Below are positions 22,854 through 49,783 of a stretch of DNA of 64,000 nucleotides, piece after piece; position 1 is the first letter of the stretch, and each line of letters begins with the position of its first letter. A model generated the notes under the pieces. It had not been told where the DNA came from. It ran no database searches and saw only the letters and a program-made list of their open reading frames with translations. A program made the translations under genes and the position numbers. Origin of the DNA: Planctomycetota bacterium (GTDB lineage Bacteria; Planctomycetota; B15-G4); NCBI GenBank assembly GCA_029259725.1, contig JAJDER010000013.1, positions 8,623-72,622 on the forward strand. The letters run 5' to 3'.

Positions 22854-22875
22854 CGGGCGCGGGCGGAGCGGAGCG

Positions 22876-26076: not shown

Positions 26077-26137
26077 AGGTCGGGGCTGGCGTGAGCCGTG
26101 CGGGTGACACGCCGCGACGGCCGCGACGATCGAGTGC

Positions 26138-26653
26138 CTAGAGCGGCTCGATCACGATCTGCACGTCGGCCGCGGTGCCCACGTCGCCCCAGGTGAGGCC
26201 CTCCGCGGGCTGCACCTTCACCACGAAGCTGATCGTCGTGGCGCGCCCTTTGGGCTGCTCCTGACCGAGGAGTAGCGCGGCGAAGAACCTGGCGTTCTCG
26301 AGGTGGATGTCCGACGCCGTCTGTACGACGGGCTCGGTGGACCCGAGTTCCCGCGTCTGGTGGGTCCACAGCGTGCCGAGCACGACCTGACCGAGCTTCA
26401 CCGAGTGGACGACGGACACGATGCGCGCGGGGCCCGGCGACAGGTCCGGCATGCACGGCTCGGTCACCGAGATGAACGACTCGACCACGGCGCCTTTCGG
26501 CGCGGGGGAGAGGCGGTGCTTCGTGACCCACGGTTGCGGGTCGTTGCCCGCGGGCTGCGCGGGCGTCGGCGTGGGTGTGTCCTGGATCGCGGTGAGGGCG
26601 GACACGCCCGTCAGCATCAGTGCGACCGCAGTGAGCCTCAGCGTCTTCATCAT
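26138..26653 (-). CDS. Small secreted protein (171 aa), unknown function; last gene of the STK-sigma operon
   Basis: ATG 26653 with GGAGGAG upstream. Signal peptide MMKTLRLTAVALMLTGVSALTA|IQD followed by a Pro/Thr linker. No family recognised. Confidence 0.5.
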   Translation of the reverse strand: MMKTLRLTAVALMLTGVSALTAIQDTPTPTPAQPAGNDPQPWVTKHRLSPAPKGAVVESFISVTEPCMPDLSPGPARIVSVVHSVKLGQVVLGTLWTHQTRELGSTEPVVQTASDIHLENARFFAALLLGQEQPKGRATTISFVVKVQPAEGLTWGDVGTAADVQIVIEPL

Positions 26654-26694
26654 GGGGTTCTCCTCCGCGCATCCGGGTTCGAGCACACGCCAGC

Positions 26695-28527: not shown

Positions 28528-28569
28528 GCGTTGTCCTCCCGGGACCCGAATGAGGACCAACGGTATCAC

Positions 28570-29187
28570 TCATCCCGGCGCCTGCCTCCGGCGGAGGACC
28601 TTGCCCAGTTCGACCAGGGCCTGGGCGTGCATCATGCGCGCGGCGTCCGAACTCGGGCGGCCGGTCTGCTCGGCGATGGACGCCCAGGACTCGCCCACGT
28701 AGAGCCGCATCACGATCAGGTCGCGATGTTCGGCCGTGAGTTCGTCGAGTGCCGCCTCCAGGAGTGCCGCCTGTTCGTCCGCGGCGGCTCGCTCGACGGG
28801 GAGAGTCACGTTCGCGGTCGGATCCACGCCGATGGTCCCGCTGGCTCCGGGCGCGACCAGGCGCTGCTCGCGCCGGGCGTCCCGCTTGGCTGCCCCGTGC
28901 CGATCCGCGGCCGCGTAGACCTGTCGCTCGGCCAGCGTCGCGAGCCACTTGATCAGGCTGGCTTCATCCCGGACTTCGAATCGCTCGAAGGACCGGACCG
29001 CCTCCAGGAAGGTCTCCTGCAGGATGTCGGCACTGTCCACCCGGCGTCGGAGTGCGGCACCGAGCCGCGCACGCACGACCTTGCGCACGCGTTCGTAGTA
29101 GCGGGCGCAGAGCGCGTCGAGGGCGGCCGCGTCCCCGGCCTGGGCGCGTTGCACGAGATCGAGCGAGCGGGTGACGTCTGCGTCCAT
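28570..29187 (-). CDS. ECF-type sigma-70 family factor (STK-linked type)
   Basis: 205 aa. Region 2 (DSADILQETFLEAVRSFERF..SLIKWLATLAERQV), a long sigma2-sigma4 linker, and region 4 HTH (LIVMRLYVGESWASIAEQTGRPSSDAARMMHAQAL). It lies 33 nt downstream of the kinase gene on the same strand. Confidence 0.85.
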   Translation of the reverse strand: MDADVTRSLDLVQRAQAGDAAALDALCARYYERVRKVVRARLGAALRRRVDSADILQETFLEAVRSFERFEVRDEASLIKWLATLAERQVYAAADRHGAAKRDARREQRLVAPGASGTIGVDPTANVTLPVERAAADEQAALLEAALDELTAEHRDLIVMRLYVGESWASIAEQTGRPSSDAARMMHAQALVELGKVLRRRQAPG

Positions 29188-29220
29188 GGCTGAGAGAGCG
29201 GCGTGGCCGCTGGGAACCCA

Positions 29221-31215: not shown

Positions 31216-31414
31216 CGCGTCTGCGCCTCCAGGCGCCGGGTTGCGGCTTCCCATCCTATGGGCACCGCCAGCCGTGAGCGAAGGTAGCCGGAGCGGTCGG
31301 GCCTGGATCCCGGGTTTTCTGGAGGTCGTCCCTTCGGTCGAGCGGCCCGCCTCCCATGTCGGGGGCGAGCGGAGCCACGAGGGCTTCCTCGGCCACGAAC
31401 CGGAGGAAACGAAG

Positions 31415-33160
31415 ATGTTCACCAGGACCCTGATCAACGCCGGCCTCGTTCTCGCCAGCCTGGCCGCCCCCGCGGCCCCCCAGCTGCTCTCCGACGAACA
31501 GGTCTGGGACTTCGAGAACAAGAAGCACCTCTCCCGGATGCCGACCACCCAGACGGAGGTCGACTCCCGCATCCGCGTCACCTGGATCGACAAGGACTGC
31601 AAGCAACTCGGGAGAGGCATCGCCTTCGAGGGCAAGCAGGAAGGGGGCTGGGGTTCGCTGCTGCTGAACCACTTCTCCGAAGGACTCGGGACGTTCCGTT
31701 CCCGCTGTTACCTGGTCGGAGACGACGACTCGCTGCTCGCCCTCGAGACCCGCGGCGCGATTCGCATCGCCACGGTCGACCACGACTACTACCTGTTCGC
31801 GGTGAAGACGCCCGGCGGAATCGGAGCGTTCCTCGCGGCCGACAGCGAGGCCGTCTCTCCGCTCTTTGATCTGGGTCTCCCCGGTGCGAGCGCGTGTGAC
31901 CTGGAGCTCGTCCTGTTCGAGACCGAAGTGGCGGCACGGGCGCGGGCGGTCGGACCCTGCAACGGAGACGCCGAGCCGGTCCTGGGAGCCTGGGTTGACA
32001 TCGGGACCTACCCGCTGGACGCCGGCGCCGACGGGAGCGCCGACGGGGACGACGACGACCTCGATGAGGAGACCGAGGAGGAACTCCACCAGCTCTCGAA
32101 GCTGCTCCAGGGTCAGTTCGCCTACCTGGTGGGGGCCTCCGGCCTGAGCAAGAAGGAGACGCGGGTGGTCTTCAACCAGCTGTGGACCGAAGCGGATTTG
32201 CTGAGCGGGTTGTTCCAGCATGACTTCTTCACCGAGGTCACCGCGATCCAGGCCGACCTCCGTGACCTGCAGACGCAGGCCGCTGACGCGAACGACGCTC
32301 CGGGGCAGCAGGTCGCCCTGGCGGACGGCGCCGCCCAGATCGGCGACCTCCGCGATCGCACCGAGGCCCTGCTGCTGGCTCTCGATGGGTCCACGGTTTC
32401 GGGTGCGTCCGGCGTCGGCGGGGCGGATGTGGCGCCCGGGCCGCTCGCCGAGACGGTCCAGAAGAAGCTCGCGATGAAGAACCTGAAGGTCGTGTCCAAG
32501 AACCTCGTTGCCGCCCAGAAGGGCGCGGACAAGGGCAGCGTGAAGTTCATCAAGAAGTACGTGTGCCTGCTGCAAAAAGCGCTCGAGCGGCTCACGGCGA
32601 CCGGCTACAACTTTCGCGGCTTCAAGGCCACGCGCATCGCGCACCTCCCGCTGCCAGCCCTGGTCAAGCCCGACGTGACCCCGTCCGGTGGCGGCGGCGG
32701 TGGCGGCACGGGGAACGCCACGCTCCAGGCCGACTTCGTCTACGGCACGGGCTTCACCGAGAGCCTGAGCGCGTCGGGCGCCGACGTGACGGCCGAGTAC
32801 CAGGTGTCCTCGGGCTTCACCTTCATCTCGGCCACGGGCCCGAACGGCGTGCTCAGCATGCAACTGGGGTACGACCCGTTGACCGAGGGTGCCCAGGTGT
32901 TCAACAGCAAGGTGTTCGCGGCGCCCTTCACGGGCAGCCTGCACAGCTTCAACTGGCAACCCCTGGGCGCCCCGGGTGGCTTCCTGCCGCCGCCCTTCAG
33001 CATGGGTGGATCCACGGCGGCCCTCTCGGTCGAGGTGGAGATCACGCAGAACGCCGGCGGTGAATTCGACCTCACCTTCTCCGGGACGCTGTTCGGCATC
33101 AACGGCTCCACGGCCCAGATCGACGGCTCGGGCTCGATGGCCTGGACCGTCACGAACTGA
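31415..33160 (+). CDS. Secreted 581-aa orphan protein (N-domain, acidic linker, helical Lys-rich region, poly-Gly, C-terminal beta domain)
   Basis: ATG 31415 (GGAGGA 8 nt upstream). Signal peptide MFTRTLINAGLVLASLAAPAA|PQ. DGDDDDLDEETEEE, KKLAMKNLKVVSKNLVAAQKGADKGSVKFIKKY, SGGGGGGGTG. No family recognised. Divergent from the kinase gene. Confidence 0.6.
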   Translation: MFTRTLINAGLVLASLAAPAAPQLLSDEQVWDFENKKHLSRMPTTQTEVDSRIRVTWIDKDCKQLGRGIAFEGKQEGGWGSLLLNHFSEGLGTFRSRCYLVGDDDSLLALETRGAIRIATVDHDYYLFAVKTPGGIGAFLAADSEAVSPLFDLGLPGASACDLELVLFETEVAARARAVGPCNGDAEPVLGAWVDIGTYPLDAGADGSADGDDDDLDEETEEELHQLSKLLQGQFAYLVGASGLSKKETRVVFNQLWTEADLLSGLFQHDFFTEVTAIQADLRDLQTQAADANDAPGQQVALADGAAQIGDLRDRTEALLLALDGSTVSGASGVGGADVAPGPLAETVQKKLAMKNLKVVSKNLVAAQKGADKGSVKFIKKYVCLLQKALERLTATGYNFRGFKATRIAHLPLPALVKPDVTPSGGGGGGGTGNATLQADFVYGTGFTESLSASGADVTAEYQVSSGFTFISATGPNGVLSMQLGYDPLTEGAQVFNSKVFAAPFTGSLHSFNWQPLGAPGGFLPPPFSMGGSTAALSVEVEITQNAGGEFDLTFSGTLFGINGSTAQIDGSGSMAWTVTN

Positions 33161-33170
33161 GTCTCCGCGC

Positions 33171-33221
33171 CGACGACGATGCCAGGCCCGGTCGGGTTGC
33201 AACCCGACCGGGCCGTCGTCG
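33171..33221. terminator. Long GC-rich hairpin between convergent genes (likely bidirectional terminator)
   Basis: Palindrome ggcccggtcgggtt-gc-aacccgaccgggcc (33185-33214), extended by cgacgac (33171-33177) pairing with gtcgtcg (33215-33221). It lies 11 nt after the stop of 31415-33160. Confidence 0.5.
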
Positions 33222-33262
33222 TACCGGGCCACTCTCGGCGCGCATGACTTCCGCCACGAACG

Positions 33263-36200
33263 CTAGGACCACGCACCACTCAACACGAAGGCAGCCCAGG
33301 TCGCCGGCCGACCCTCGCCGTGGCGGCGCCGCTGGAGCTCGAGCATCTCGAGTTGCGCTCGACGCAGGGCTTCGGCGCGACCGAGCCCGTCGATCCAGAG
33401 GGCTCGATAGAAGCGCTCCATCAACGCGGCGGTCGAGCCGTCATCCACGGCCCACAGCGACGCGATCAGGGTCCGGGCACCAGCGAGGTGGAAGGCCCGC
33501 CGCAGTCCGATCAGCCCCTCGCCGGCGCGTGGCTCGCCGAGACCCGTTCCGCACGCGCTGAGCACGACGAGTTCGGTCGCGGACAGATCGAGCCAGGCCA
33601 CCTCTGCGGCCGTGAGGTGGGCGTCGGGATCAGCGTTGGCACCGGCGCACACGAGCCCCGCGGCCAGGCCGGGGAAACGGTGGCGCAGCAGGTCAGCGGC
33701 GTTCGCGTCGGCGGCGCTCACGTCGGTCTCGATCGGAGGCTCGAAGAACGCGTGCGTCGCGAGGTGCAACACCTTCGCGCGCGACATCTCGTCCCGGACG
33801 CGGGCCTTCGTGGCGCCAGCCCCCGTCAACAGCACGCGTGGGGCCTGCTCTCCGAACTTCTCGGCATGAAGGTCGAGCACCACCCGGGATTCGTAGGCCG
33901 TGGCTGGCAGGGGAGCCCAACGCTTGCCTCCCCCTCCACCGGGGGTACGGGGCGTCGCCTCTCCGGTGCCATCGAAGCGCACGTCCCCCACGCTGACCAG
34001 CGACGAAGAACCGGAGGAGGGCAGGGGCTCCTTGGTAGCGGGGTCGACGAGCACGACGTCATGGGACTCCAGCAGGTAGCGCTCATCCTCGAGCAGGATG
34101 GCGCCCCAGGGCACCATGCCCACGATTCCGTCGGGAGAGATCTGGAGGCGCCCCACCCCGTCCAGGTGTGATGCGAGAGGTTCCCACAGACTTGCGCGCA
34201 GTCGATTGTTGGCCGGCCCTGTCCGACCCGTTGCTCGATCGACGGACAGGATCTCGGCGAGGAAGTCCCGGACGTCGGCTTCCAGTACGGAGAGGTCCCC
34301 GAGATCGATCCGGCGCACGCCATCGCGACCGCCCCGGCGGATCCAGGCGCTGACGCGCGGTGAAGCCCAGTGGCCGGGTCCGGCTGCCGCCCGGTCGGTG
34401 TCGTAGGGTCGCCAGATCAGGAGATCCGCGAGCGCGGTCCCTTCCGGAAGCGTGGGCGTCGGCAGCCGATTCCGAGGTGTCGGCAAGCCGGTCGCCCCCA
34501 GTCTCCGCTCCAGCTCGTCGCGTTCTCGCGTCAGCGCTTCGAGCTGCTCCGGTGACGCCGACATCCGAGTCGCCATGACCGAGAGGCCCGCCTGGACCTC
34601 GCGCAGCCGGTCGAGGGATGGCGTCAGGTCTTCGTCCTGCTGGTCATGGAGCGCCCGACGGCCCGCGAGCTGGTAGCGGGCGAGCCTCCCCTTCCACAGC
34701 AGGATCGCCCGGTGCACCTCGTCCTCCCGGTCGAGCTCCGACGACAGTCCGATCAACAGGTCGAGATGGGACCGGTAGGCCCCGATGAAGTCGAGCGCCT
34801 CGGGCTCGGAGAACGCCGCGAGGGTCAACTCGAGGTGCCTGTCGAGCGGCTCGATCGTTGACCACGTGAGGTCCCAGGCCTGCTCGGATTGCCCGAGCTC
34901 GATGAACCGTTGGGCCAGGTTGCCGACACGCTCGAGCGTGAGCGGATGATCGGCACCGACAGTCGCCCGCGACATGTCGACGGAGCGCCGGAGCAGAGCC
35001 ACGGCGGCTTCCGGATCACCGCTCTCGGCGAGAGTGACGGCCAGGTTGTTGAGGGCCAGTGCGATGTCGGGATGGTCTCCCGCATGGGCGGCTTCGACGA
35101 TCGACAGGGCGCGCCTGAGGTCATCGACCGCCTCGGCGTGACGCCCTGCCTGCCCCAGGGCCCGCGCACGCCGGCCGAGGTCCTTGGCGAGCACGGGGTG
35201 GTCGGGTCCGGCTTGCAGGACGCGTGCAGAGACGACACCGTCGAGAAGCTCCAGGGAAGCCGTGGTCTCGCCCAGCCGACTCAACACTCCCGCCAGGGCG
35301 GCCTGGGTGTCCAGCAACGCGGGAGTCCCCGGAGCGAGAGCGGTCGACTGGATCTCCAGGGCCCGCTGGTGATAGGTGCGCGCCACCGTGTCCTGCCCCA
35401 CGCCCTCGTGGAACTGTCCGAGGTGGAACAGGGCGAGCCCCACGCGGGGATGGCGACCGCCCAGCTCGTCCTGGATGACGGCCAGGGCCTGTTCTCGATG
35501 ATGCCGCGCTTCCGGAATCCGGCCGACCTCTTCCAGAGCGGCGGCGAGGCTCGTTGCCGCCCGGGCGGTGTCGAGGTGGTCGGCGCCGTGGACGTCCACG
35601 AACATCGTCCATGAGCGTTCCAACAGACGCAGCGCACCCTTCGCGTCCCCGCCCGCTCGCCGCGCTCGTGCGAGGTTGGCCAGCGAGGCCGCCGTGAGCG
35701 CGCTCGCCCCGGTGAGGTCCTCTCTCAGCTCGAGAGCCGCCTGCAGTCTCTCCCGTGCCCGTGCGAGGTCGCCGGTGTCCGTGAGCAGGATGCCGAGGTT
35801 CGTGAGGGTGGCGGCGAGCTTCATGGGATCGCGAGGCTCCGCGGACTCACGGATCGCGAGCGCCCGTTCGTACATGCTTCGCGCTTCGGCCCAGGCACCG
35901 CCCTGGTGCAGCATGGTGGCGAGGTCGTTGGCCCGGCCGGCGATGATGCCTGCGTCCGGATCCGTTCCCGCTTCGGCCAGTTCGAGGGACAGACGGCCGA
36001 GGACCGCGGCCGAGATCAGGTCTCCCCGCTGCAGCGCCATCCGCGCGAAGTCGTTGGCGCGCAGGGAGCGATCACGCTGTTGAGCGTTGCTCGCGTCGAT
36101 GCGCGTGGCGATCACGACCATCGTCTCCCGAGCGACGTCCGAGCGTCCTGCCTGAGCGGCTCGACCATGGAGCTGGCCGAGCGCGTCGAGCGCCTCGTCG

Positions 36201-36337
36201 CCGGGGATCTCGGAGAGGAGCTCGAGCGCGCGCCGCAACTCGTCCGGTGGCGGATCGTCCGGCGCGCGCGTACCCACGGTCGCCAACGCGACCATCAGCA
36301 CGGGCGTCAGGAGCCGGTGAGCGCTCATCCAGTGCAT
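33263..36337 (-). CDS. Secreted TPR-repeat / CHAT-domain (caspase-like) protein, second copy of this architecture
   Basis: ATG 36337 or 36328 (MSAHRLLTPVLMVALATVGTRA, signal-like). About 12 TPR_12-like repeats (NLGILLTDTGDLARARERLQAAL, LNNLAVTLAESGDPEAAVALLRRSV ..). CHAT dyad context VLHLATHAFFE ... LVVLSACGTGLG, ending RPATWAAFVLSGAW. Confidence 0.85.
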   Translation of the reverse strand: MHWMSAHRLLTPVLMVALATVGTRAPDDPPPDELRRALELLSEIPGDEALDALGQLHGRAAQAGRSDVARETMVVIATRIDASNAQQRDRSLRANDFARMALQRGDLISAAVLGRLSLELAEAGTDPDAGIIAGRANDLATMLHQGGAWAEARSMYERALAIRESAEPRDPMKLAATLTNLGILLTDTGDLARARERLQAALELREDLTGASALTAASLANLARARRAGGDAKGALRLLERSWTMFVDVHGADHLDTARAATSLAAALEEVGRIPEARHHREQALAVIQDELGGRHPRVGLALFHLGQFHEGVGQDTVARTYHQRALEIQSTALAPGTPALLDTQAALAGVLSRLGETTASLELLDGVVSARVLQAGPDHPVLAKDLGRRARALGQAGRHAEAVDDLRRALSIVEAAHAGDHPDIALALNNLAVTLAESGDPEAAVALLRRSVDMSRATVGADHPLTLERVGNLAQRFIELGQSEQAWDLTWSTIEPLDRHLELTLAAFSEPEALDFIGAYRSHLDLLIGLSSELDREDEVHRAILLWKGRLARYQLAGRRALHDQQDEDLTPSLDRLREVQAGLSVMATRMSASPEQLEALTRERDELERRLGATGLPTPRNRLPTPTLPEGTALADLLIWRPYDTDRAAAGPGHWASPRVSAWIRRGGRDGVRRIDLGDLSVLEADVRDFLAEILSVDRATGRTGPANNRLRASLWEPLASHLDGVGRLQISPDGIVGMVPWGAILLEDERYLLESHDVVLVDPATKEPLPSSGSSSLVSVGDVRFDGTGEATPRTPGGGGGKRWAPLPATAYESRVVLDLHAEKFGEQAPRVLLTGAGATKARVRDEMSRAKVLHLATHAFFEPPIETDVSAADANAADLLRHRFPGLAAGLVCAGANADPDAHLTAAEVAWLDLSATELVVLSACGTGLGEPRAGEGLIGLRRAFHLAGARTLIASLWAVDDGSTAALMERFYRALWIDGLGRAEALRRAQLEMLELQRRRHGEGRPATWAAFVLSGAWS

Positions 36338-36518
36338 CCCCCATCAGGACACGGCTGCCTTCGCCCGGATCCCAGAGAGCCAGGGCGACCCCCGCGAGCC
36401 CGAGCGTCCTGATCATCAGGCGTCCTCCTGGGGTGCCGGGCTCGATGATACGCCCGTGCTGGGCGAGCGGGCAGCCACCCGTGACGGAACGACGCGCTCG
36501 AGGAACGCGGGCCCTCGA

Positions 36519-37577
36519 TCACGCCCCGAAGGCGGCCTCATACGTCGCCCGCAGCGTGCGCCCGTCGGTTGCGCACTCCGTCAGCGTCGTCCAGCGCCCC
36601 GGCCGCGTGTCCGGCGCCTGACGCGCGGCGTCGAGGAACGTCGCGCGATCGATGCCGAGTCCCTCGGGCATGGTGATCATCCCGATCGCCTCGCCGAAGC
36701 TCCGCAGCGGTGCCGGGTCCTCACCCTGCAGCGCGGTGCAGAAGATCGTGGCGACGCCGACCTGCTCGCCGTGGAGGCCACCCTCGATGTCCATGCGGTC
36801 GAGCTGGTGGCTGATCAGGTGTTCGCTGCCGCTGCACGGGCGGCTGTTGCCGCTGATCTCCATGGCCACGCCGCTGAGCAGCAGGCCCTCGACCACGCGC
36901 TCCAGGAACGCGGGGTCGTCGATGTCGGGCTTCGGCGCATCGACCACCTGACGCGCGGCGCCCAGCGCGAAGGTGCGCGCCATGCCGTCCACCAGGGCCT
37001 TGTCGGCAGCGGCGGCGCGATCCCAGTCGCGGCAGGCCGTGAGATTGCTGAGCAGGTCGCCGACGCCGGCCAGACGCAGGCGCCTGGGCGCGCCCGCGAG
37101 CACGTCGAGGTCGATGATCACGCCCGACGGCATGGTCGCGCCCACGCTGCGGCGCTTGCCGTCGGTGGCGAGCACGGCGACGGGGGAACCGAAGCCGTCG
37201 TTGCTCGCCGCCGTCGGCAGCGAGATCCACGGCAGACGCTTCTCGGACGCGGCGAGCTTGGCCACGTCGATCACCGAGCCCCCGCCCACGGCGAGCACCA
37301 CCTGCGGGAAGAAGCCCTCGATCAGCGCGTTCTTCACGCGGTCCGCCTCGGCGAAGGTGCCGCCGAACACCTCCTCGACGCGCACGGTCACGCCGGCGGC
37401 CTCGAGCGCGGTGGCCACGCGGTGCGCCGGCGGCTGCGTGGGCCCGTCGCCCATGATCACGAGCGCGCGGGCGAAGGAGAGGTTGCAGGCGGCGAGCGCC
37501 TCGGGCACGTCGTCGAAGGCCCCCGCGCTCACGCGGGTCACCAGCGGCAAGTGGACGGTCTGGAGCAGCGTGCCCAT
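36519..37577 (-). CDS. sn-Glycerol-1-phosphate dehydrogenase-family protein (EgsA/AraM-like, iron-ADH superfamily)
   Basis: 352 aa, with GGGGAG 5 nt before ATG 37577. GGGSVIDVAK nucleotide loop. LPTAASNDGFGSPVAVL and SGSEHLISHQLD match the G1PDH-type substrate/metal motifs as I remember them (archaeal PTxASHDGIASP / GSEHxxSH). Confidence 0.7.
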   Translation of the reverse strand: MGTLLQTVHLPLVTRVSAGAFDDVPEALAACNLSFARALVIMGDGPTQPPAHRVATALEAAGVTVRVEEVFGGTFAEADRVKNALIEGFFPQVVLAVGGGSVIDVAKLAASEKRLPWISLPTAASNDGFGSPVAVLATDGKRRSVGATMPSGVIIDLDVLAGAPRRLRLAGVGDLLSNLTACRDWDRAAAADKALVDGMARTFALGAARQVVDAPKPDIDDPAFLERVVEGLLLSGVAMEISGNSRPCSGSEHLISHQLDRMDIEGGLHGEQVGVATIFCTALQGEDPAPLRSFGEAIGMITMPEGLGIDRATFLDAARQAPDTRPGRWTTLTECATDGRTLRATYEAAFGA

Positions 37578-37592
37578 GGTCGTCTCCCCGTG

Positions 37593-38453
37593 CTACCCGG
37601 CGTTCCCGCACGTCGGCGCGGCGCCCGCGCTGCCCGCGCTGTTCGCGCCGCCCGCAACCGCCGCGGCGTCGAAGCCCGCGGCGATCCTCCCGGCCTCGGC
37701 CAGGTCCTCCGGCGTGTCGACCTCGGTCCAGGGCCGGCCGCCCGTGGAGCACTTGCCGATCACCACCTCGTCGACGATGCCGTTCAACGCGCCCTCGTAC
37801 CAGTCGTCGGTCTGGCCCGCGTCGATCATGCGCGCGAGGCTGCGGTAGTATGCCGCCAGCGCGGCGCCGCGGAAACGCAGCATGCCGATGTACTCGCCGT
37901 GGCTCGCCGCCGGGTCGAGATCCTTGCCGATGCGGCGCAGGCGTCCATCGGCGTAGACGACTTTCATCTGCTCCTCGGCCAGGGCGCAGGTGTCGTCGAT
38001 GGTGAGCAGGGCGTCGCCGTCGGTGGACAGGAGCGTGGTGAGGATCTGCGGGTGGAAGAGCGTGTCGCCGTTGATCAACAGCAGGTCGTCGGGCACGTGG
38101 CCTGCCAGCAGGTGCACCGAATAGACGTTGTTGTGCACGTCCCACAGCGGGTTGTGGATGCGCGCGACGTCGGGGTGCTCGCGCTCCAGCGCCTCGACGG
38201 CGTGGCCGCTGACCACGCGGATGTCGCGGCCCGGGATGCCGGCGGCGGCGAGCGCGTCGAGCTGGCGCGACAGGATCGAGCGGCCGGCCACCTGCAGCAG
38301 GCTCTTGGGCAACGCGTCCGTCAAGGATCCCAGCCGCGACCCGCGCCCGGCAGCGAGGATGCACACGACCGGGTGCGTCGCGGACGTCGCGGGCGGGGTG
38401 TCGGGCGCGGTGTCGGGCGCGGTGCCGGGCGAGCTGTCTTCGGTGGGCGTCAT
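37593..38453 (-). CDS. Nucleotidyltransferase (LicC/COG1213-like cytidylyltransferase)
   Basis: ATG 38453 overlaps the upstream stop (ATGA). After a Pro/Thr-rich leader comes the signature ILAAGRGSRLGSLTDALPKSLLQVAGRSIL. GDTLF. The 712-aa ORF 37593-39731 is an out-of-phase extension across the upstream gene. Confidence 0.7.
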   Translation of the reverse strand: MTPTEDSSPGTAPDTAPDTPPATSATHPVVCILAAGRGSRLGSLTDALPKSLLQVAGRSILSRQLDALAAAGIPGRDIRVVSGHAVEALEREHPDVARIHNPLWDVHNNVYSVHLLAGHVPDDLLLINGDTLFHPQILTTLLSTDGDALLTIDDTCALAEEQMKVVYADGRLRRIGKDLDPAASHGEYIGMLRFRGAALAAYYRSLARMIDAGQTDDWYEGALNGIVDEVVIGKCSTGGRPWTEVDTPEDLAEAGRIAAGFDAAAVAGGANSAGSAGAAPTCGNAG

Positions 38454-39574
38454 GGAGGGCGGGTCAGCGAGACGTCGGATCGCACGGCCGGCTCGGGCAG
38501 CCCCGCGATGCGGTGCAGCGCGGCCAGCGCAGCCGCGGTGGCGTGGCCCGGATGGTAGTAGACGTCGTGCAGCGCCGCTCGTCGATCTTCGCTCCGGGCC
38601 TCCGGATCGGCCAGTTCGGCGGCGATCAGCTCGGGCAGGGCGCGGGGATCGCTGCAAGCGGTGCCGATGCGCGTGCGCCAGGTGGTCACGTCGGCCTCGC
38701 CGGCGCGCTGGTCGAGCTGGCCCTCGAAGGTCATGAAGATCGCCGGGCGGTCGAGGTGCAGCCACTCGAAGGCCACCGACGACAGATCGGTGATGAGCAG
38801 GTCCGCGGCGTGCATGAGCGGGACCACGTCCCAGACCGCGGGCGTGGCGAAGTGCGCGTGCGACCGCGCGTGCGCGTCCAGCACCGAGCGCCAGTCGAGA
38901 CGGCCGTAGCGCGGGTCGAGCGAGTTGTCGTGGGGCTTGCAGATCACGTTGAGGTCGAGGCCGGTCCGCGTGCCGGCCTCGCCCGACGCCGTGAGCCCGG
39001 ACAGCGCCGCGAGGATCTCCTCGCCCATCTTCTCGAGCGACGACTCGTGGCCCCAGGTCGGCGCGTAGAGCACGGTGGGCTTGTCCGGATCGAGGCCGTG
39101 CTCGCGCAGGGTCGCGGTGCGGTCGAGGGAACCGTCGGTGAGCCGATCGGTCTTCGGGAACCCGATCTCGTGCAGGCCCGGGTCGCCCGCTTGCACGAGG
39201 CCGCGCTCGATCAGCCGGCGCCGCAGCCACGGGCCGATCAGGAACACGTGGTCGTAGTCGGCCACGCGCCGGTTCATGTTGTGGCCCTTGCCCGAGATGC
39301 CGTGGAAGATCTGCACCGTCGCCTTGGCGTGGCGCGTGGCCAGGATCCAGTCGGCGGACACGAGCACGTCCGGCCGCGCGAACTTGGCGCGCCAGTTGGG
39401 GCGTCGTTTGGCGGGGAGCGCGCCGACCTTGTCGAACAGCGTCGTGCTCGAGGACCCGTGCTCCTTGCCGTACAGGTGCACGTCCCAGCCGCCGGCCGCC
39501 AGCAGCCCGCGATGGAGCGGCCGGAAGACCTCGTAGTTCATGGGACGCTTGGCGCGGAAGGCGACGACCGGCAT
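38450..39574 (-). CDS. CDP-glycerol glycerophosphotransferase-family protein (TagB/TagF-like)
   Basis: 374 aa. Blocks typical of Glyphos_transf: KPTVLYAPTWG, a HP..-type motif (VICKPHDNS), and DLLITDLSSVAFEWLHLDRPAIF. Confidence 0.7.
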   Translation of the reverse strand: MPVVAFRAKRPMNYEVFRPLHRGLLAAGGWDVHLYGKEHGSSSTTLFDKVGALPAKRRPNWRAKFARPDVLVSADWILATRHAKATVQIFHGISGKGHNMNRRVADYDHVFLIGPWLRRRLIERGLVQAGDPGLHEIGFPKTDRLTDGSLDRTATLREHGLDPDKPTVLYAPTWGHESSLEKMGEEILAALSGLTASGEAGTRTGLDLNVICKPHDNSLDPRYGRLDWRSVLDAHARSHAHFATPAVWDVVPLMHAADLLITDLSSVAFEWLHLDRPAIFMTFEGQLDQRAGEADVTTWRTRIGTACSDPRALPELIAAELADPEARSEDRRAALHDVYYHPGHATAAALAALHRIAGLPEPAVRSDVSLTRPP

Positions 39575-39729
39575 GCGGCCATCGTAGAGAACGCCCCCGG
39601 CAGTGTCGTGAGCGCGCGGGACGGCCCGCCGAGACCCGGCGACGGCGAACCGCTAGTATCCTGAACCGTGATCCGTGGGCCCCCGCGGCCCGCGCACGCT
39701 TCTCCGGCCCTCCGGACCCTGCTCCCGCC

Positions 39730-40779
39730 ATGGCCGCTCCCGGCTCCGACGCTCCCGTCTTCGTGGTCGGTCACCCGCGCTCGGGGACCACGCTGCTGCG
39801 GCTGATCCTCAACGCCCACCCGCGCATCGTGATCCCGCCGGAGGGGCACGTGGTCAGCTTCCTGCGTCGCTGCGAGCAGAAGTACGGCCCGATGAGTGAC
39901 GACGACGCCTTCGAGCGGGCCATCGACCGGCTCGCCCACAAGGACCGCCAGAAGGAGTGGGGCTTCACGCCGGACCAGATCATCGACGTCTGCCTGCAGG
40001 GCGAGCACAGCCCGGCCGGCATCTTCGCCTCGCTCATGTCGCTCTGGACCGAGCAGTCGGGCAAGCCGCGCTGGGGCGAGAAGACGCCGGGCAACTACCG
40101 CTACATCGAGGACGTGACCGGCTGGTTCCCGAAGGCGCAGGTCGTGCACATCGTGCGCGACGCGCGGGACGTGGCCGTGAGCTGCCTGACGCCACCCTTC
40201 TCGGATCGGTACGACAAGGGCAACGAGTACGAGGTCGCCCTGCGCTGGCGCGACGCCGTGCACCGCGGCCGCAGGGCGGCCCAGGCGCTGGGCCCGCAGC
40301 GCTACACGGAGTTCCGCTACGAGGACCTGACCGCCGAGCCCGAGCGGCTGGTCCACGCGCTGTGCGACTTCCTGCACGAGGACTTCGTGCCCGAGATGAT
40401 GGACTTCCACCGCGGCGCCCAGGGCAAGCTTTCGCGCGGCGAGCAGTCGTTCCACAAGCGCACCCACGGCGAGGTCGACCGCAAGCGCGTCGAACGCTGG
40501 CGCCGCGACGTGCCGCGCGAGTTCGTGATGCGGGTCGAGGGCATGGCGGGCAAGGAGCTTGCTGAACTCGGGTACGAGCTCTCGGGGTTCGAGCCGACGC
40601 TGGGGTTGCGGGCCGAGTTCCTGGCGCAGAAGCTCAAGCCGCGCAAGCTGACCCGGACCTTCAAGCCCAAGGGCGGGGGCTCGAGCGACAAGCAGAGTCG
40701 CTCGGCATCCGGCACCGGTGGGCCCGACGCCGGGGGGCCCGACGCCGCGGTGGCGCCGGACGACGCGCAGGCCGACTGA
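39730..40779 (+). CDS. Sulfotransferase-family protein
   Basis: VFVVGHPRSGTTLLRLIL (5'-PSB), VVHIVRDARDVAVS (3'-PB), YEDL. 349 aa with a Gly/Ser/Asp-rich tail. The sigma gene starts 19 nt downstream. Confidence 0.8.
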   Translation: MAAPGSDAPVFVVGHPRSGTTLLRLILNAHPRIVIPPEGHVVSFLRRCEQKYGPMSDDDAFERAIDRLAHKDRQKEWGFTPDQIIDVCLQGEHSPAGIFASLMSLWTEQSGKPRWGEKTPGNYRYIEDVTGWFPKAQVVHIVRDARDVAVSCLTPPFSDRYDKGNEYEVALRWRDAVHRGRRAAQALGPQRYTEFRYEDLTAEPERLVHALCDFLHEDFVPEMMDFHRGAQGKLSRGEQSFHKRTHGEVDRKRVERWRRDVPREFVMRVEGMAGKELAELGYELSGFEPTLGLRAEFLAQKLKPRKLTRTFKPKGGGSSDKQSRSASGTGGPDAGGPDAAVAPDDAQAD

Positions 40780-40798
40780 GCGCGGCGGGGGAGCCCAC

Positions 40799-41476
40799 AT
40801 GGACACGGACGCCCGCCCCCCCGACCCCACTCCCGCGGACCCGCCGCCCCCTGACCCGGACGACGAGTCGGTCACGCGTCACCTCGCCCGCGGTGCCCAG
40901 GCCGGCGACGAGGCGCGCTTCTCCGCGCTGTGCGAACGCCTCGCCCCGGCGCTCTACGGCTGGTCGGTGCTGCGCATCCCGCCCGAGCTGCGCGCGCGCC
41001 TGCAGCCCGAGGACCTGATGCAGGACGTGTGGCTGCGCGCGTTGTCGGCCTTCGGGAGCTACGACGCCGATCGCGGACCGCTGCGCCCGTGGTTGTTCCA
41101 GGTGGCCAAGTACACGCTGCTCGATGCGCTGCGTCGAGGGCGCGTGCGCGTGCAGCCGCGCCAGGAGCCCGCGCCCGACGGAGGTTCGGACGCCGGCGGC
41201 GGCGCGCGGCTCTCCCAGGTTCCCGACGACGCCACCGCGGTCAGCCAGCGCGTGGCCCGCCGCGACGACGTGGCCGCGTTCCTCGCGCACGTCGAGACCC
41301 TGCCCGAGGAGGACCGCGACCTGCTCGTGCACCACGGACTCGAGGGTCTCAGCCTGGGCCAGGCCGCCGAGCGCCTCGGTCTGGAGAAGGCCGCCGCGCA
41401 GAAGCGCTGGCAACGATTGCGCGCGCGGCTTGCGGAGCACGGCTGGCCCGAGGGCATGTTCGAGCCGGGCGCATGA
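40799..41476 (+). CDS. ECF-type sigma-70 family factor
   Basis: ATG 40799 (GGGGGAG upstream). Pro-rich N-terminus. Region 2 PEDLMQDVWLRALSAFGSYD..LRPWLFQVAKYTLLDALRR. Region 4 LLVHHGLEGLSLGQAAERLGLEKAAAQKRWQRL. Confidence 0.8.
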   Translation: MDTDARPPDPTPADPPPPDPDDESVTRHLARGAQAGDEARFSALCERLAPALYGWSVLRIPPELRARLQPEDLMQDVWLRALSAFGSYDADRGPLRPWLFQVAKYTLLDALRRGRVRVQPRQEPAPDGGSDAGGGARLSQVPDDATAVSQRVARRDDVAAFLAHVETLPEEDRDLLVHHGLEGLSLGQAAERLGLEKAAAQKRWQRLRARLAEHGWPEGMFEPGA

Positions 41477-41489
41477 GGCCGGGCGGCAC

Positions 41490-44400
41490 TCAGCGTCCGT
41501 ACGCGTCGACCCAGTCCGGCAGCTCGTCGATGGCAGCGCGCTCGCGGGCCACGCTCACCAGGTCCACCGGCCAGACCCGTGCTGTTCCGTCCTGACCGGC
41601 GGTCACGACGAAGCGCCCGTCTGGGCTGAACCGCGCGCGATGCACCGGACCCTCATGCCCGGTCAGGCGCACGATGAAGCGTTTGTCCCGCGGCTCCCAG
41701 ATCAGCGCCGAACCGTCGTAGCTCGCGGTGACGTACAGGTCTCCGCCCGGCTGGCGATCGAGGGTCGTCGTGCGGTCACTGTGGTGGCCGGCGCTGTTGT
41801 AGATGTTGTTCGACGCGGGGTCCTGCAAGAGCACGGTCGGGTTCCAGCGCGCGGTGACCAGCACCTCGCGCCCACGACCCGTGAAGCGCACCGTGCCGAG
41901 AGTGGTCGTCGGCTGCTCGGCCAGCAGGGAACCGTCGTCGAGATTCCACCAGCGGATCTTGGTGTCCTGGCTCACGGCGACCAGGACCTGGCCATCCGCG
42001 GAGACGTCGACGTCGTAGATCGTGTGCTGCGCGTGCGAAACGGCGGTCTCCGCCCAGCGTTCGAGGACGTGGCGTGCGTCTCCGCTGGCCGTGTCCCAGA
42101 CGCGGATGCTGCGGTCGGAGGCGCCGGTCACGACCAGGCGGCTGTCGGGCGTCCAGGCCACGCAGGCGATGTCCGCGCCGTGGCCCGTGAGCTCCCGACG
42201 GACCGCTCCCGTCGAAGCGTCCCGCAGCAGCAGCCCGCCGGCCAGGTCACCGCTGAGCAACCAGCGCCCGTCGGGGGATGCGCTGAGGACCGTGACCTCG
42301 GCGTCGTGAGACCGCGCGGGCGGGCGGGGTGCTCCGGTGGACGTGTCCCACAGCCTGACGGCCCCGTCGGCCGAGGCCGTGGTCACCGAGGCGCCGCCGT
42401 CGACGTAGACGCCGGCGACCACCCGGCTCTGGTGATCGAGCGTCGCGCGCGGCGAGCCATCGGCCGTATTCCACAACCTCGCCGTACCGTCGGACGATGC
42501 GGTCAGCACGGACCGCCCGTCGGGTGCGAAGGCGACATCCCGGACCGGACCGGTGTGCCCCCGGAGCTCGAGCAGGCCGGGGCGGTCGGGGAGGTACCAC
42601 ACGTCCGCCCAGCTATCACCGCCCTGGCTGATCAGGCGCGTGCCGTCGCCGGTCCAGTGCACTCCGAAGATCATGCCGGAGGAGCCGCGCAGGACCTCGA
42701 CCAGCTCACCGGTGACGGCATCGTGGATGCGCACGACGCGGTCGTAGCTGCCGGTCGCGAGACGGCTTCCATCGGGTGAGTAGTCCGCGCAGTACACGGC
42801 GCGCGAACCCTGGTCGGGCAACTCGATCAGGCGCTCGCCCGTGTGGGCATCCCAGACCGACGACGGCGAAGGATGCGGTGTGGTGATGTCGCCCGGGTCG
42901 CAGGTGGTCACGATCCGGGTGCCGGTCGGGTCGAAGGTCACCGAGTGCACGATGCCCGTGTGTTCCAGGACGAACCGGGTCGTGCCGTCCGACAGGTCGT
43001 GCATGGCCACCGTGCCGTCGCGCGAGGCGGTGGCGAGGCGGGTTCCGTCCGGAGCGAAGGCGGCGGTGGTGATGAGGTCCGCGTGGCCGCCGAACGAGGC
43101 CAGGAGGGTGCCCTCGGGAACGGACCAGAGGCCGGCGCCAGCGGTGGCGGGTGCGTCGTCGCTGCCCGGTGTGCCCGAGATGGTGACGAGGAGATCACCG
43201 GTCTCGTCGAACAGCACGTCGCTCACGGCGCCCAGGTGGTCGGACAGGAGCAGGCCGAGGCCGTCGCCGCCGCTGGTCCACAGGCGCGCGGTGCCGTCGT
43301 TGCCGGCGGTGGCGAAGTGCTCGCCATCCGGAGCGAAGGCCACGTCGCGTACGGAGTCCTCGTGGGCCTCGTATTCGAAGGCGACGTCGCCGGTCGACGC
43401 GCGGTGCAGTCGCACCACGCCACTCTCGTCGCCGGTCACGATCCAGCTGCCGGTCGGGTCGAGGTCGGCCTTCCGGGCACCCGAGAATTCCAGAGAGAAC
43501 ACCGACTCGCCCGAAGCCAGGTCGTACAGGTTCAGGCCGTTGCGACAGACCAGCATGCGCTCACCGAACAGGGACAGGTCCATCCCCCGTCCAGGAGAGC
43601 CGCGGACCTTGATCCGGTGCTCGAGTCGGCTTCGCTGCAGCGCGGCGAGCAGGGCGTTGTTGGACTCGAATCCCGGGCTCAGCGACGCGGCCTCCAGCGC
43701 CATCGTCAAGGCCGCCGTCGGGTTGTCCTCGGCCACGATCATGGCCAGGTTGGCGATGGCCTGCCCGCGAGCGCGAGACAGCGCCTGCTCCTTCTCGTCG
43801 CTCTCGGTGCGCACGTCGGCGAGCAGCGCGAGCGTCACTCCGAGCCCGATGCCGAGCACGACGACGAGCAACAGCCCGGACATCGCCAGGGCGGGATTGC
43901 GCTGGACCCAACGCCGCAGATGCACGAGGGGACCCGAGCGGCGCGCGGTGATCGGTTCGTACAGACGCACGCGACGCAGGTCTTCGGCCAGCTCGAGCGC
44001 GTTGCCGTAGCGGCGCTGGCGGTCCTTGTCCATGGCCACGGCGAGGACGACGACGAGGTCCGCGGGCGCCGCCGGGCTCAGGCGCGCGGGTGAGACGGGC
44101 TCCTCGTTGCAGATGGCCTGCTCGAGCCGGTTTCCCGAACCGGAGAAGGGACGCTGGAGCGTGAGGCACTCGTAGAGCGTGACCGCGAGCGAGTAGACGT
44201 CGGTGCGCGCATCGAGCTCGCGACCATCGCCGAGGATCTGCTCGGGGCTCATGTACGCGGGCGTGCCGAAGGCCTCCCCGGAGCGGGTCAGCGTCGGGGT
44301 GCCGTCCTCGGTAGGGCGTGCCAGCCCGAAGTCGAGGATCACGGGCTCCCCGCGCTGGTCGACCATCAGGTTGGCGGGTTTGACGTCGCGGTGGATGACG

Positions 44401-45131
44401 CCGGCTTCGTGAGCGGCGTGCAGCGCCCGGGCGGCACGTTCGAACACGGCCAGCAGGCGACGCACGCCGACGGGATCGCCCGGACCGCAGACGACGCCGC
44501 CCGGCGTGTCCGCGGCGACGGTCGATCCGGGGCCTCCGCCCGCGATGCTGGTGGATGCTGGCGTCGAAGACTCGGTCGCCGAATCCGCCGCCGGGTGGTG
44601 ACCCTGCTGGGCGCGTCGGGCACGCTTGACGAGTTCGGCGAGGGTCTCGCCCTCGACCGCGCGCATGGCCACCCAGGGCGGGTCCGCATGCAGGTCGGCG
44701 CGATGCACGGCGCACAGCCCCGGGTGGTCGAGTCGTGCGACGATCTCGACTTCTCGCCGCAGCCGTGCACGCCGCGCGCTCGACAGGACGCCGGCCGGCG
44801 TGCGGATGATCTTGAGCGCCACGTCACGTCCGAGGGCCGTCTCTCGCGCCAGGTACACGGTGCCCTGGCCACCGCGGCCCAGTTCGCGCTCGATCGTGAA
44901 CCCGGGAATCTCCGGCGGCGTCGGAGGCTCGATGTCGGCGCTCTCCGGGAACATCGACGCGCTCTCGGCCGCGAGCAGCCGCACGTGCTCGGCGGCCACG
45001 TCGTCCTCGTATCCGGGGAAGCGCGCGAGGTAGTCCTGCAGCGTGCGCTGCCGCCCTTCGCGCCGGTCCCTCAGGAACAGCTCGACGAAGTCGAAGACGT
45101 GCGACGCCGTGTCGAGTTCGGCGGGATCCAC
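41490..45131 (-). CDS. Ser/Thr protein kinase - TM - WD40 beta-propeller protein (1213 aa)
   Basis: GRGGQGTVY, VALK, HRDVKPANLM, DFGLA, GTPAYMSPE. TM segment ALAMSGLLLVVVLGIGLGVTLALL. At least 12 WD40-type repeats (DGTARLW, DGTVAMHD, DRVVRIHD, DGAVRLWD, DRSIRVWD, DGTARVWP ..). Confidence 0.9.
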   Translation of the reverse strand: MDPAELDTASHVFDFVELFLRDRREGRQRTLQDYLARFPGYEDDVAAEHVRLLAAESASMFPESADIEPPTPPEIPGFTIERELGRGGQGTVYLARETALGRDVALKIIRTPAGVLSSARRARLRREVEIVARLDHPGLCAVHRADLHADPPWVAMRAVEGETLAELVKRARRAQQGHHPAADSATESSTPASTSIAGGGPGSTVAADTPGGVVCGPGDPVGVRRLLAVFERAARALHAAHEAGVIHRDVKPANLMVDQRGEPVILDFGLARPTEDGTPTLTRSGEAFGTPAYMSPEQILGDGRELDARTDVYSLAVTLYECLTLQRPFSGSGNRLEQAICNEEPVSPARLSPAAPADLVVVLAVAMDKDRQRRYGNALELAEDLRRVRLYEPITARRSGPLVHLRRWVQRNPALAMSGLLLVVVLGIGLGVTLALLADVRTESDEKEQALSRARGQAIANLAMIVAEDNPTAALTMALEAASLSPGFESNNALLAALQRSRLEHRIKVRGSPGRGMDLSLFGERMLVCRNGLNLYDLASGESVFSLEFSGARKADLDPTGSWIVTGDESGVVRLHRASTGDVAFEYEAHEDSVRDVAFAPDGEHFATAGNDGTARLWTSGGDGLGLLLSDHLGAVSDVLFDETGDLLVTISGTPGSDDAPATAGAGLWSVPEGTLLASFGGHADLITTAAFAPDGTRLATASRDGTVAMHDLSDGTTRFVLEHTGIVHSVTFDPTGTRIVTTCDPGDITTPHPSPSSVWDAHTGERLIELPDQGSRAVYCADYSPDGSRLATGSYDRVVRIHDAVTGELVEVLRGSSGMIFGVHWTGDGTRLISQGGDSWADVWYLPDRPGLLELRGHTGPVRDVAFAPDGRSVLTASSDGTARLWNTADGSPRATLDHQSRVVAGVYVDGGASVTTASADGAVRLWDTSTGAPRPPARSHDAEVTVLSASPDGRWLLSGDLAGGLLLRDASTGAVRRELTGHGADIACVAWTPDSRLVVTGASDRSIRVWDTASGDARHVLERWAETAVSHAQHTIYDVDVSADGQVLVAVSQDTKIRWWNLDDGSLLAEQPTTTLGTVRFTGRGREVLVTARWNPTVLLQDPASNNIYNSAGHHSDRTTTLDRQPGGDLYVTASYDGSALIWEPRDKRFIVRLTGHEGPVHRARFSPDGRFVVTAGQDGTARVWPVDLVSVARERAAIDELPDWVDAYGR

Positions 45132-45290
45132 GGGCTCACCTTATGCGGGCCGGGGCGGGGGCGCCATCGAGGCCGATCGAGAGTGCGGGGGACAAGAGGC
45201 CCCCGGGCCCATCGTCGGACCCGGGGGCTCCCCCACGAGACCGCCGGGAAGCTCGGGGGCTCCGGGCGGGGAACAGAAGCACGTCGAGCG

Positions 45291-49630: not shown

Positions 49631-49783
49631 GGGGAGACGCTCCGGGGACGGGGCAGGCGGCAAGGCCAGCGGCCCTTGCACCCGAAGTCGCCTATCGACA
49701 CACCACCGGGGTGGGTTGAGCCTCGGATCCGGCGCGCCGTGCAGGCCCGGACCGGTGGCGTGGAACCCGCGTTTCCACCTCGG

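Follow-up and report, generated by a model that had tools for sequence, protein, structure and literature searches.

What does a homolog of glycerol-1-phosphate dehydrogenase (G1PDH) do in a bacterial operon that also codes for a nucleotidyltransferase and a TagF-like glycerophosphotransferase? The question is raised by a locus (positions 36519–39574) in a stretch of 64,000 nt from a Planctomycetota bacterium (GenBank assembly GCA_029259725.1, contig JAJDER010000013.1, positions 8,623–72,622 of the forward strand), hereafter designated the window. The reading that we favor, and consider rather probable, is that this operon converts dihydroxyacetone phosphate (DHAP) to sn-glycerol-1-phosphate (Gro1P), activates it to CDP-glycerol and transfers glycerophosphate to a probably sulfated acceptor, with chirality, nucleotide and acceptor all being predictions. 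In essence this is the logic put forward in the initial annotation of the locus (make Gro1P, activate it with CTP, transfer glycerophosphate), and it is supported by the family of the dehydrogenase, the relatives of the nucleotidyltransferase and the fold of the glycerophosphotransferase, from which the chemistry is deduced.

The window contains ca. 71 % G+C, a composition at which long spurious open reading frames (ORFs) are common, and coding signatures were judged from the G+C content at the three codon positions (GC1/2/3). The minus strand contains three genes, confirmed as genuine at the coordinates given here: a 374-aa transferase of CDP-alcohols (glycerophosphate) from the TagB/TagF family, with a single GT-B catalytic module (GPT, 38450–39574; GC1/2/3 of 0.71/0.50/0.94); a 286-aa LicC/IPCT-type nucleotidyltransferase, predicted to be a CTP:Gro1P cytidylyltransferase (NT, 37593–38453; 0.70/0.52/0.96); and a 352-aa dehydrogenase of the G1PDH (EgsA/AraM) family, with an Fe-ADH fold and predicted to produce Gro1P from DHAP and NAD(P)H (DH, 36519–37577; 0.72/0.52/0.95). 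A competing ORF of 712 aa that overlaps the operon genes (37593–39731) shows a flat, non-coding profile in its 5′ part. GPT and NT share an ATGA overlap (NT ATG at 38453–38451, GPT TGA at 38452–38450), and the 15-nt spacer between NT and DH, CACGGGGAGACGACC, includes a Shine-Dalgarno-like run (GGGGAGA); the sequence and its GC3 profile thus bear out the gene order, overlap and gap initially described. The sole other start candidate for NT is a GTG at 38366 (codon 30); the ATG is favored because codons 1–29, which specify a Pro/Thr-rich extension not present in homologs, keep a GC3 of 0.97.

Divergently from GPT, the plus strand codes for a 349-aa PAPS-type sulfotransferase (ST2, 39730–40779; Sulfotransfer_3, 126 bits). 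Judging from its geometry, the 155-bp intergenic region (39575–39729) probably controls the two transcription units. Neither a match to the sigma-70 consensus nor an intrinsic terminator was found in positions 36200–40000, which is uninformative for a genome with 71 % G+C and a non-sigma-70 consensus. No transmembrane segments were predicted in DH, NT, GPT or ST2. The order GPT-NT-DH also occurs in a relative (locus L001), whose proteins are 65, 61 and 64 % identical, respectively, to those of the window. The arrangement of the three genes is not due to chance, because it is repeated in L001 and because NT-DH adjacency is strongly concentrated in a single region of the DH tree (see below).

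The best NCBIfam model for DH is that of G1PDH (NF002022; 247.4 bits), which it matches over its full length (residues 6–334 on profile positions 6–332), and in Pfam it matches Fe-ADH_2 (105 bits). The PDB entries retrieved were 3CE9 (E-value of 2.5e-53), archaeal G1PDH (ca. 1e-34) and GldA (ca. 1e-14), and DH is 33–39 % identical, among the matches listed, to EgsA from archaea with obligate G1P lipids. As a reference for its residues we used the polar positions conserved in at least 90 % of 40 archaeal EgsA sequences, their roles being argued from this conservation. DH keeps the metal triad (D174/H253/H269) as well as D184-W185, S245-R246-P247-x-S249-G250-x-E252, S256, H257, D260, R325, R328 and T330, whereas the G1PDH-specific positions are missing from Escherichia coli GldA, which is gapped or different there, and from AroB. 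A GldA-type glycerol dehydrogenase (NCBIfam score of 86 versus 247 bits, and G1PDH residues missing in GldA) and a DHQS-like enzyme (20 versus 247 bits, and DH placed apart from AroB in the tree) were ruled out, and DH did not cluster with GldA, from which it is also separated in the tree, or with another iron-ADH subfamily. Profile, PDB ranking and residues all favor the G1PDH assignment made initially, such that by family and residues DH would be a G1PDH-type enzyme, with Gro1P as the predicted product from DHAP. Its close homologs are few (54–65 % identity), and the next ones fall to 47 % or less. As a separate observation, entry 3CE9, deposited as a "glycerol dehydrogenase", groups within the G1PDH family (100 % bootstrap with a bacterial group described below), and its deposited name is probably inaccurate; in this protein, the S-R-P motif has a Ser instead of its Arg, which is nearly invariant elsewhere.

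NT belongs to the MobA/LicC type (NTP_transf_3, PF12804; 51.4 bits, cutoff of 27). Its best sequence matches in PDB are LicC (CTP:phosphocholine; 3e-7), 6PD1 (a CMP-aminoethylphosphonate-type nucleotidyltransferase; 6e-7) and IPCT (1e-6), all of which we take to be cytidylyltransferases for small phospho-compounds, and the source names of NT homologs likewise point to cytidylyltransferases. The LicC/COG1213-like label of the initial annotation is thus apt, in that the closest characterized relatives act on small phospho-alcohols. The best NCBIfam match is the IPCT domain from the pathway of di-myo-inositol-phosphate, a compatible solute. Family PF01467, which comprises the HxGH cytidylyltransferases TagD/TarD, was not among the Pfam matches of NT, indicating that it is not a TagD homolog, although its predicted function resembles that of TagD. 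Motifs L33-A34-A35-G36-x-G38-x-R40-L41 and P49-K50 are invariant both in the NTs found next to DH genes, to four of which the window NT is 61, 55, 40 and 37 % identical, and in the NT type resident in close relatives (see below). The nucleotide would be CTP, judging from partner transferases that use CDP-alcohols. Two distant NT homologs (P0296, 414 aa, and P0304, 418 aa) are fused to a TagD-type PF01467 domain, combining two cytidylyltransferase folds in one protein.

GPT matches Glyphos_transf (PF04464; 66.2 bits, cutoff of 22.1) over residues 98–319 but reaches only 23 of the 550 bits required by the TarF equivalog model, and it is thus not an ortholog of a named Tag/Tar enzyme. It could be modeled by AlphaFold (AF2) with a pLDDT of 91.8 and a pTM of 0.91, and the top PDB matches of the model in Foldseek were TagF (3L7J/3L7I; E-value of ca. 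4e-13, TMq of 0.57–0.66), Cps3D, a TagF-like capsule polymerase, and TarL, with generic GT-B epimerases coming close behind. An alignment of 30 family members revealed as invariant H91-G92, K213/H215 and D263-S265-S266-E270. The K213-x-H215 motif aligns with RMH584Y of TagF, in which His584 is the second active-site histidine, this His being conserved in Cps3D and TarL and replaced by Ala in the variant chain of 3L7M. The profile alignment with TagF itself stopped short of the H91 region; nevertheless, QIFHG of GPT (H91-G92) aligns with QTWHG of canonical TagF-like ORFs situated in three of the DH loci (L010, L028 and L044). This WHG motif presumably corresponds to His444 of TagF, the first catalytic histidine. 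GPT belongs to a narrow family, with 68 matches in 5.8 billion proteins. Profile, predicted fold and conserved motifs agree in assigning GPT to the TagB/TagF-like proteins, as first annotated, and not to a non-glycerophosphate family; the modeled protein looks competent as a TagF-family enzyme and would use CDP-glycerol as donor. We also noted that the title of 3L7M reads "TagF, H548A", yet variant and wild-type chains differ at position 584 (RMH to RMA), so two digits of the title seem to have been swapped.

We examined the genomic context of DH homologs in individual relatives and in at least 80 loci from named genomes, whose contigs matched DH with 29–44 % identity and do not include the close relatives of the window; a search of metagenome contigs with DH retrieved only two distant loci. 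Neighbors were classified by a hidden Markov model scan for NT, GPT and sulfotransferases, and loci were grouped by their position in a neighbor-joining tree of DH. Among the loci listed, an NT is adjacent to or overlaps the DH gene in 14 of the 24 from group (i), in none of the 24 from a second bacterial group and in none of the 38 from the archaeal clade (p = 8e-6 and 7e-8, respectively). The NT-linked loci span Actinomycetota, Bacillota, WOR-3, Candidate Phyla Radiation and two archaea: they come from close or metagenomic relatives (L001, L003 and L005), Blastococcus (L004), Solirubrobacterales (L010), Marinithermofilum (L013), WOR-3 (L016), archaea (L017 and L018), Thermoleophilaceae (L028), Kerfeldbacteria (L029), Clostridia (L038), an uncultured bacterium (L044) and Streptomyces (L084). 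All the NT-linked DHs fall in one region of the tree, together with the clade of the window, and NT identities (61, 55, 40 and 37 %) run parallel to those of DH (64, 58, 40 and 42 %). In a bootstrap analysis with Poisson distance, the close clade of the window was recovered with 100 % support, the archaeal EgsA clade with 99 % and the second bacterial group, including 3CE9, with 100 %, and some split with 100 % support parts this second group from every NT-linked DH. These results indicate that NT-DH is a co-evolving, mobile, two-gene cassette, functionally coupled and widespread over bacterial phyla. The order of the three-gene unit initially described stands, but the exact triad is rare, occurring in the window and in L001; the conserved units are the NT-DH cassette and an NT-GPT-sulfotransferase core specific to the lineage of the window.

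The neighbors of the cassette suggest its product. A TagF-like transferase lies beside NT-DH in the window and in L001, L005, L010, L028 and L044, and a CDP-OH_P_transf protein does so in L095 and L013, above the Pfam cutoff, and in L003 and L017, just under the cutoff and with its DxxDGxxAR signature kept. The product is likely to be a CDP-alcohol because these neighbors belong to two unrelated families of transferases using CDP-alcohols. Other neighbors are Wzx-type flippases (L016 and L029), LCP ligases (L004 and L005) and a GT2 protein (Streptomyces). In L005, a Gram-positive-type cluster, NT-DH occupies the slot of TagD among TagO, TagA, TagF and LCP genes, which is the strongest argument for a CDP-alcohol used in envelope polymers.

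The second bacterial group shows a different arrangement. In 16 of its 24 loci (L007, L011, L012, L014, L019, L022–L026, L032, L035, L036, L040, L050 and L083), a HAD-superfamily protein of ca. 235 aa with a DFDGT motif is coded directly upstream of DH (e.g., L040:9291–9995, plus strand), and five further loci (L021, L047, L058, L067 and L077) contain a NagD-like HAD gene (e.g., L077:9209–9991, plus strand); none of the 24 has an NT. This suggests that the group represents a separate module of G1PDH plus phosphatase.

Comparison with four relatives (L089, L090, L091 and one JGI contig, one of them being Planctomycetota bacterium DHS20C15 in NCBI) revealed how the cassette probably came to lie beside GPT. 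The relatives share a block composed of CysZ/EI24, an acyl-CoA dehydrogenase (ACAD), a sulfotransferase (ST1), in some cases an MscS channel, NT, GPT and ST2, followed by GT4-DUF1844-pyrG-kdsB, and with no DH. Identity between the window and L089–L091 is 52–56 % for GPT, 55–68 % for ST2, 81–83 % for ACAD and 78 % for PyrG, so these genes are orthologous by sequence, whereas it drops to 34–38 % for NT, which is not; indeed, the window NT is closer to that from L005 (40 %). Gene order is NT-GPT-ST2 in the relatives versus GPT-NT-DH-ST2 in L001. The most parsimonious explanation is the insertion of an NT-DH cassette in the window and L001, with loss of the resident, non-orthologous NT. Since the resident NT works without a dedicated dehydrogenase and was swapped for one that brings its own supply, the cassette NT would need the product of DH.

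What is conserved in the lineage of the window is thus an NT-GPT-sulfotransferase core. ST2 orthologs (55–68 % identity) lie directly downstream of GPT in L089–L091 or of DH in L001, and the divergent ST2 is therefore part of the operon unit. ST1 (22975–23892, plus strand; 34–48 % identical to its counterparts in the relatives) and ST2 are paralogs with 29 % identity and weak NoeE-like matches. The left flank, formed by a CysZ/EI24 sulfate-transporter-like gene (20504–21454, minus strand), ACAD (21687–22853, plus strand) and ST1, all assigned with Pfam/NCBIfam, abuts NT-GPT-ST2 on the upstream side in the relatives (20504–23892 in the window, where ca. 12.6 kb of signaling genes intervene), and a link with the operon through sulfate supply is possible. 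Synteny of the CysZ-like transporter and two sulfotransferases with GPT in the four relatives points to a sulfated product. With respect to L089–L091, the window keeps the flanks of the block, its operon is inverted relative to ST2, and two insertions are apparent: 24001–36337, with an FG-GAP protein, a GSDH-like protein, an ECF sigma factor, a Ser/Thr kinase, a 628-aa unknown and a TPR-CHAT protein, and 40718–47165 (ca. 6.4 kb), with an ECF sigma factor, a 1213-aa kinase-WD40 protein and a 624-aa unknown. Three relatives carry between ST1 and the resident NT a gene for a mechanosensitive channel of ca. 1150 aa and MscS/MscK type (L089:2648–6178 and L090:2594–6058, plus strand), absent from the window, L001 and L091.

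These data are compatible with a pathway in four steps. DH would reduce DHAP with NAD(P)H to Gro1P, as predicted from its family and residues; we know of no other Gro1P pool in bacteria. NT would join Gro1P and CTP into CDP-1-glycerol, with an sn-1 linkage, as suggested by family, co-evolution and context. From its family, fold and catalytic residues, GPT would then move glycerophosphate from CDP-1-glycerol to an acceptor hydroxyl on the cytoplasmic side of the membrane, with release of CMP; being TagB-sized and with a single catalytic module, GPT could attach either a single unit or a short chain. Finally, ST2 may sulfate the same product, a step proposed from conserved synteny. A wider proposition, which we advance tentatively and with clearly less confidence, is that much of the bacterial G1PDH clan constitutes half of a mobile NT-DH cassette making CDP-sn-glycerol-1-phosphate for envelope glycopolymers, and not for archaeal-type lipids. 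The enantiomer that textbooks assign only to lipoteichoic acid and archaeal lipids would then make up some polymers of the wall teichoic acid (WTA) type in Bacillota and Actinomycetota, as well as a sulfated glycerophospho-conjugate of the window host, a Planctomycetota-like diderm, and the exchange of the resident NT would be an enantiomer switch for one TagF-type transferase.

Several observations weigh against the proposed Gro1P-based pathway. DH scores under the curated equivalog cutoff for G1PDH (247.4 versus 413 bits), and neither NT, with 68 bits for its best model against a cutoff of 580, nor the resident NT type matches a curated equivalog in NCBIfam. Strict monophyly of the NT-linked DHs received a bootstrap of 16 %, no NT neighbor was detected in 10 of the 24 listed loci of group (i), and the homologs examined include no NT-DH, DH-GPT or NT-GPT fusion, the only NT fusions being those to a TagD-type domain. 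Orthologous GPTs from L089–L091 are paired with a different NT and have no linked DH. GPT may thus accept ordinary CDP-3-glycerol without selecting between enantiomers, and some TagF-like enzymes and glycerol-phosphate cytidylyltransferases (GCTs) are enantiomer-promiscuous (PMC8262930). Additionally, none of the window ORFs next to the operon codes for a glycosyltransferase, an exporter or a ligase that could serve an acceptor polymer.

Part of this evidence would also fit a different substrate. DH could reduce another keto-phosphate, to be activated by NT into a donor of the CDP-alditol or CDP-hydroxy-acid type, as occurs with TarJ/TarI (CDP-ribitol) or AbpA/AbpB (CDP-arabinitol). The low equivalog score of DH and the sharp drop in identity that sets the clade of the window apart from the rest of the family are in line with this, as are the range of CDP-polyols taken by the TagF family (e.g., TarL with CDP-ribitol in 8VA1) and the varied small phospho-compounds activated by LicC-type NTs, including CpgD. 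We nevertheless consider it unlikely: DH keeps all the polar residues conserved in archaeal EgsA, including SRPxSG and the R325/R328 missing in GldA, its similarity to EgsA is as expected between archaeal sequences of different phyla, and the operon has no supplier of an unusual ketose phosphate. We attach a similarly low probability to a second alternative, which maintains the donor chemistry and changes its destination, the product being a soluble or small anionic compound, such as a sulfated glycerophospho osmolyte, instead of an envelope polymer. No protein of the operon unit has predicted transmembrane segments, and its neighbors in the window include no glycosyltransferase, flippase, ABC exporter or LCP ligase; the channel of 1150 aa between ST1 and NT in three relatives, the match of NT to a domain from a compatible-solute pathway and the conservation of the CysZ-like transporter and both sulfotransferases would suit an osmolyte as well. 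The window, L001 and L091, however, lack the channel gene, and elsewhere NT-DH is found in clear envelope-polymer contexts, with TagO, TagA, LCP or Wzx. Moreover, all the characterized TagF-family enzymes use, to our knowledge, lipid-linked or polymeric acceptors.

The remaining alternatives concern the role of DH. The G1PDH reaction is reversible, and DH could be a salvage or catabolic enzyme oxidizing to DHAP the Gro1P from envelope turnover, with NT using ordinary sn-glycerol-3-phosphate (Gro3P). The orthologous GPT-ST2 core does function in relatives without a linked DH, and GCT-type enzymes can be promiscuous for the enantiomer (PMC8262930). This would leave unexplained that DH travels with one NT type over many phyla, that gain of the cassette coincides with loss of the resident NT and that it replaces TagD in a teichoic-acid-type cluster (L005), and we find it very improbable. 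Least plausible, to the point of being nearly negligible, is that DH lies beside NT and GPT by coincidence and provides Gro1P for ether lipids of the archaeal type, a role comparable to that of AraM, which supplies PcrB in Bacillus subtilis. Among bacterial G1PDHs, that is the only role known from experiments (Guldan 2008, 2011, cited in PMC8262930 and PMC4244643), and phylogenetic works speculate that it extends to the bacterial clan (PMC6431249). Yet neither GGGPS/PcrB nor DGGGPS is found among the coding ORFs of the window, in line with the initial remark that no GGGPS/PcrB-like prenyltransferase is adjacent, or among the genes listed for L001, L003, L004, L005 and L095. The recurrent partner of DH is an NT, not a prenyltransferase, and the AraM-like sequence 9H4X lies in the other bacterial group of the neighbor-joining tree, away from the window DH. 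The pathway from DHAP through Gro1P and CDP-glycerol to a transferred glycerophosphate stays our preferred reading.

The surroundings of the operon code for Ser/Thr kinases, a TPR-CHAT protein and ECF sigma factors. Elsewhere in the window, kdsB (54935–55687), whose presence had been noted initially, passes the equivalog cutoff of TIGR00466 (165 versus 155 bits) and is followed by pyrG; from kdsB it is reasonable to consider the host a diderm. The window also codes for AnmK and a GT4 glycosyltransferase, and its coding ORFs include no TagD, TagO, exporter or LCP gene. A 759-aa protein (47402–49681, minus strand) has an N-terminal signal-anchor-like segment, an HExxH motif (HEYTH) and no match in Pfam or NCBIfam, and its homologs (40–43 % identity) are next to ST2 in L089–L091. 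An exporter or polymerase was ruled out for this conserved ST2 neighbor of ca. 700 aa, given its single signal-anchor-like segment and HExxH motif, and by sequence it looks like an unclassified secreted metalloprotease. Near its right end, the window codes for an intact-looking DDE transposase (61598–62752, minus strand; DDE_Tnp_1_4, 430 bits). Lastly, two gene calls based on GC3 overlap on opposite strands (5225–10768, minus, and 7988–11107, plus), the plus-strand ORF having no Pfam match.

Phosphoglycerol chirality divides bacterial (Gro3P) from archaeal (Gro1P) lipids, and also wall teichoic acids (Gro3P, from CDP-glycerol) from lipoteichoic acids (Gro1P, from phosphatidylglycerol); a bacterial CDP-1-glycerol route, if true, would blur this second line. 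It would also provide a testable function for the bacterial G1PDH homologs, a deep clan whose role was left open and for which no informative operon structure was reported (PMC6431249; PMC5059525), and predict that the polymers withstand GlpQ and other hydrolases specific for Gro3P. The enzymes would be natural sources of enantiopure CDP-1-glycerol, which glycoconjugate chemists now obtain from promiscuous GCTs. The cassette is present in the cultured species Blastococcus colisei, Streptomyces silvisoli and Marinithermofilum abyssi, making the prediction directly testable. CDP-1-glycerol has been considered "likely absent" in bacteria (Litschko et al., 2021; PMC8262930), in agreement with the initial remark that this is not a textbook pathway. 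The literature searched, which covered few subscription journals and may thus have missed an earlier description, contains no bacterial route with CDP-glycerol-1-phosphate or a glycerol-1-phosphate cytidylyltransferase. A 2026 survey of synteny in Streptomyces lists araM beside a sugar-phosphate NT, a CDP-alcohol phosphatidyltransferase, GT2 and tagGH, without interpretation (PMC13118837).

The predicted pathway follows the same logic as TagD/TarD and TagB/TagF in poly(glycerol phosphate) WTA and TagF-like capsules, where glycerol phosphate and CTP yield CDP-glycerol for a TagF-family GT-B transfer. It differs in its activator, a Rossmann NT of LicC/IPCT type instead of PF01467, in its dedicated G1PDH, which predicts the opposite enantiomer, and in its host and partner gene, a diderm carrying kdsB and a sulfotransferase, respectively. 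TarI/TarJ, AbpA/AbpB and the pneumococcal Gtp1-3 (CDP-2-glycerol) likewise place a reductase and cytidylyltransferase cassette beside the consuming transferase, with an NT of the same broad fold class; however, TarJ is a medium-chain Zn-ADH, whereas the window reductase is an Fe-ADH-fold G1PDH homolog with DHAP as predicted substrate. The gtp1-3 genes, invoked initially as a precedent, are a good one insofar as they form a small module that supplies an isomer of CDP-glycerol, but not in their full content: the Gtp route requires Gtp3, a glycerol-2-phosphotransferase with no counterpart in the window operon, whose neighbors are a sulfotransferase and a TPR-CHAT protein, and the gtp1-3 pathway itself was ruled out for lack of a Gtp3-like gene. 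Archaeal EgsA and B. subtilis AraM (EC 1.1.1.261) belong to the same family as DH, with the same conserved metal and substrate residues and the same predicted reaction; in archaea and Bacillus, Gro1P is the substrate of a prenyltransferase (GGGPS/PcrB) that leads to ether lipids, whereas in the window it would be directed to nucleotide activation. As a natural role for CDP-1-glycerol, only the synthesis of archaeal glycerophosphoinositol has been described, with the Archaeoglobus fulgidus GCT, which prefers Gro1P (PMC8262930). In the IPCT/DIPPS system, the partner of IPCT is a CDP-alcohol phosphotransferase, a pairing also shown by the cassette in L095, L013, L003 and L017. Both are archaeal or hyperthermophile compatible-solute systems in which Gro1P is a bulk metabolite, whereas the window operon is bacterial, carries its own G1PDH and would feed a TagF-type enzyme. 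The component families are therefore known, and what is new, as a variation on the reductase and cytidylyltransferase modules that supply CDP-polyols, is that a G1PDH and a cytidylyltransferase of LicC type are combined to feed transferases of the TagF or CDP-alcohol type.

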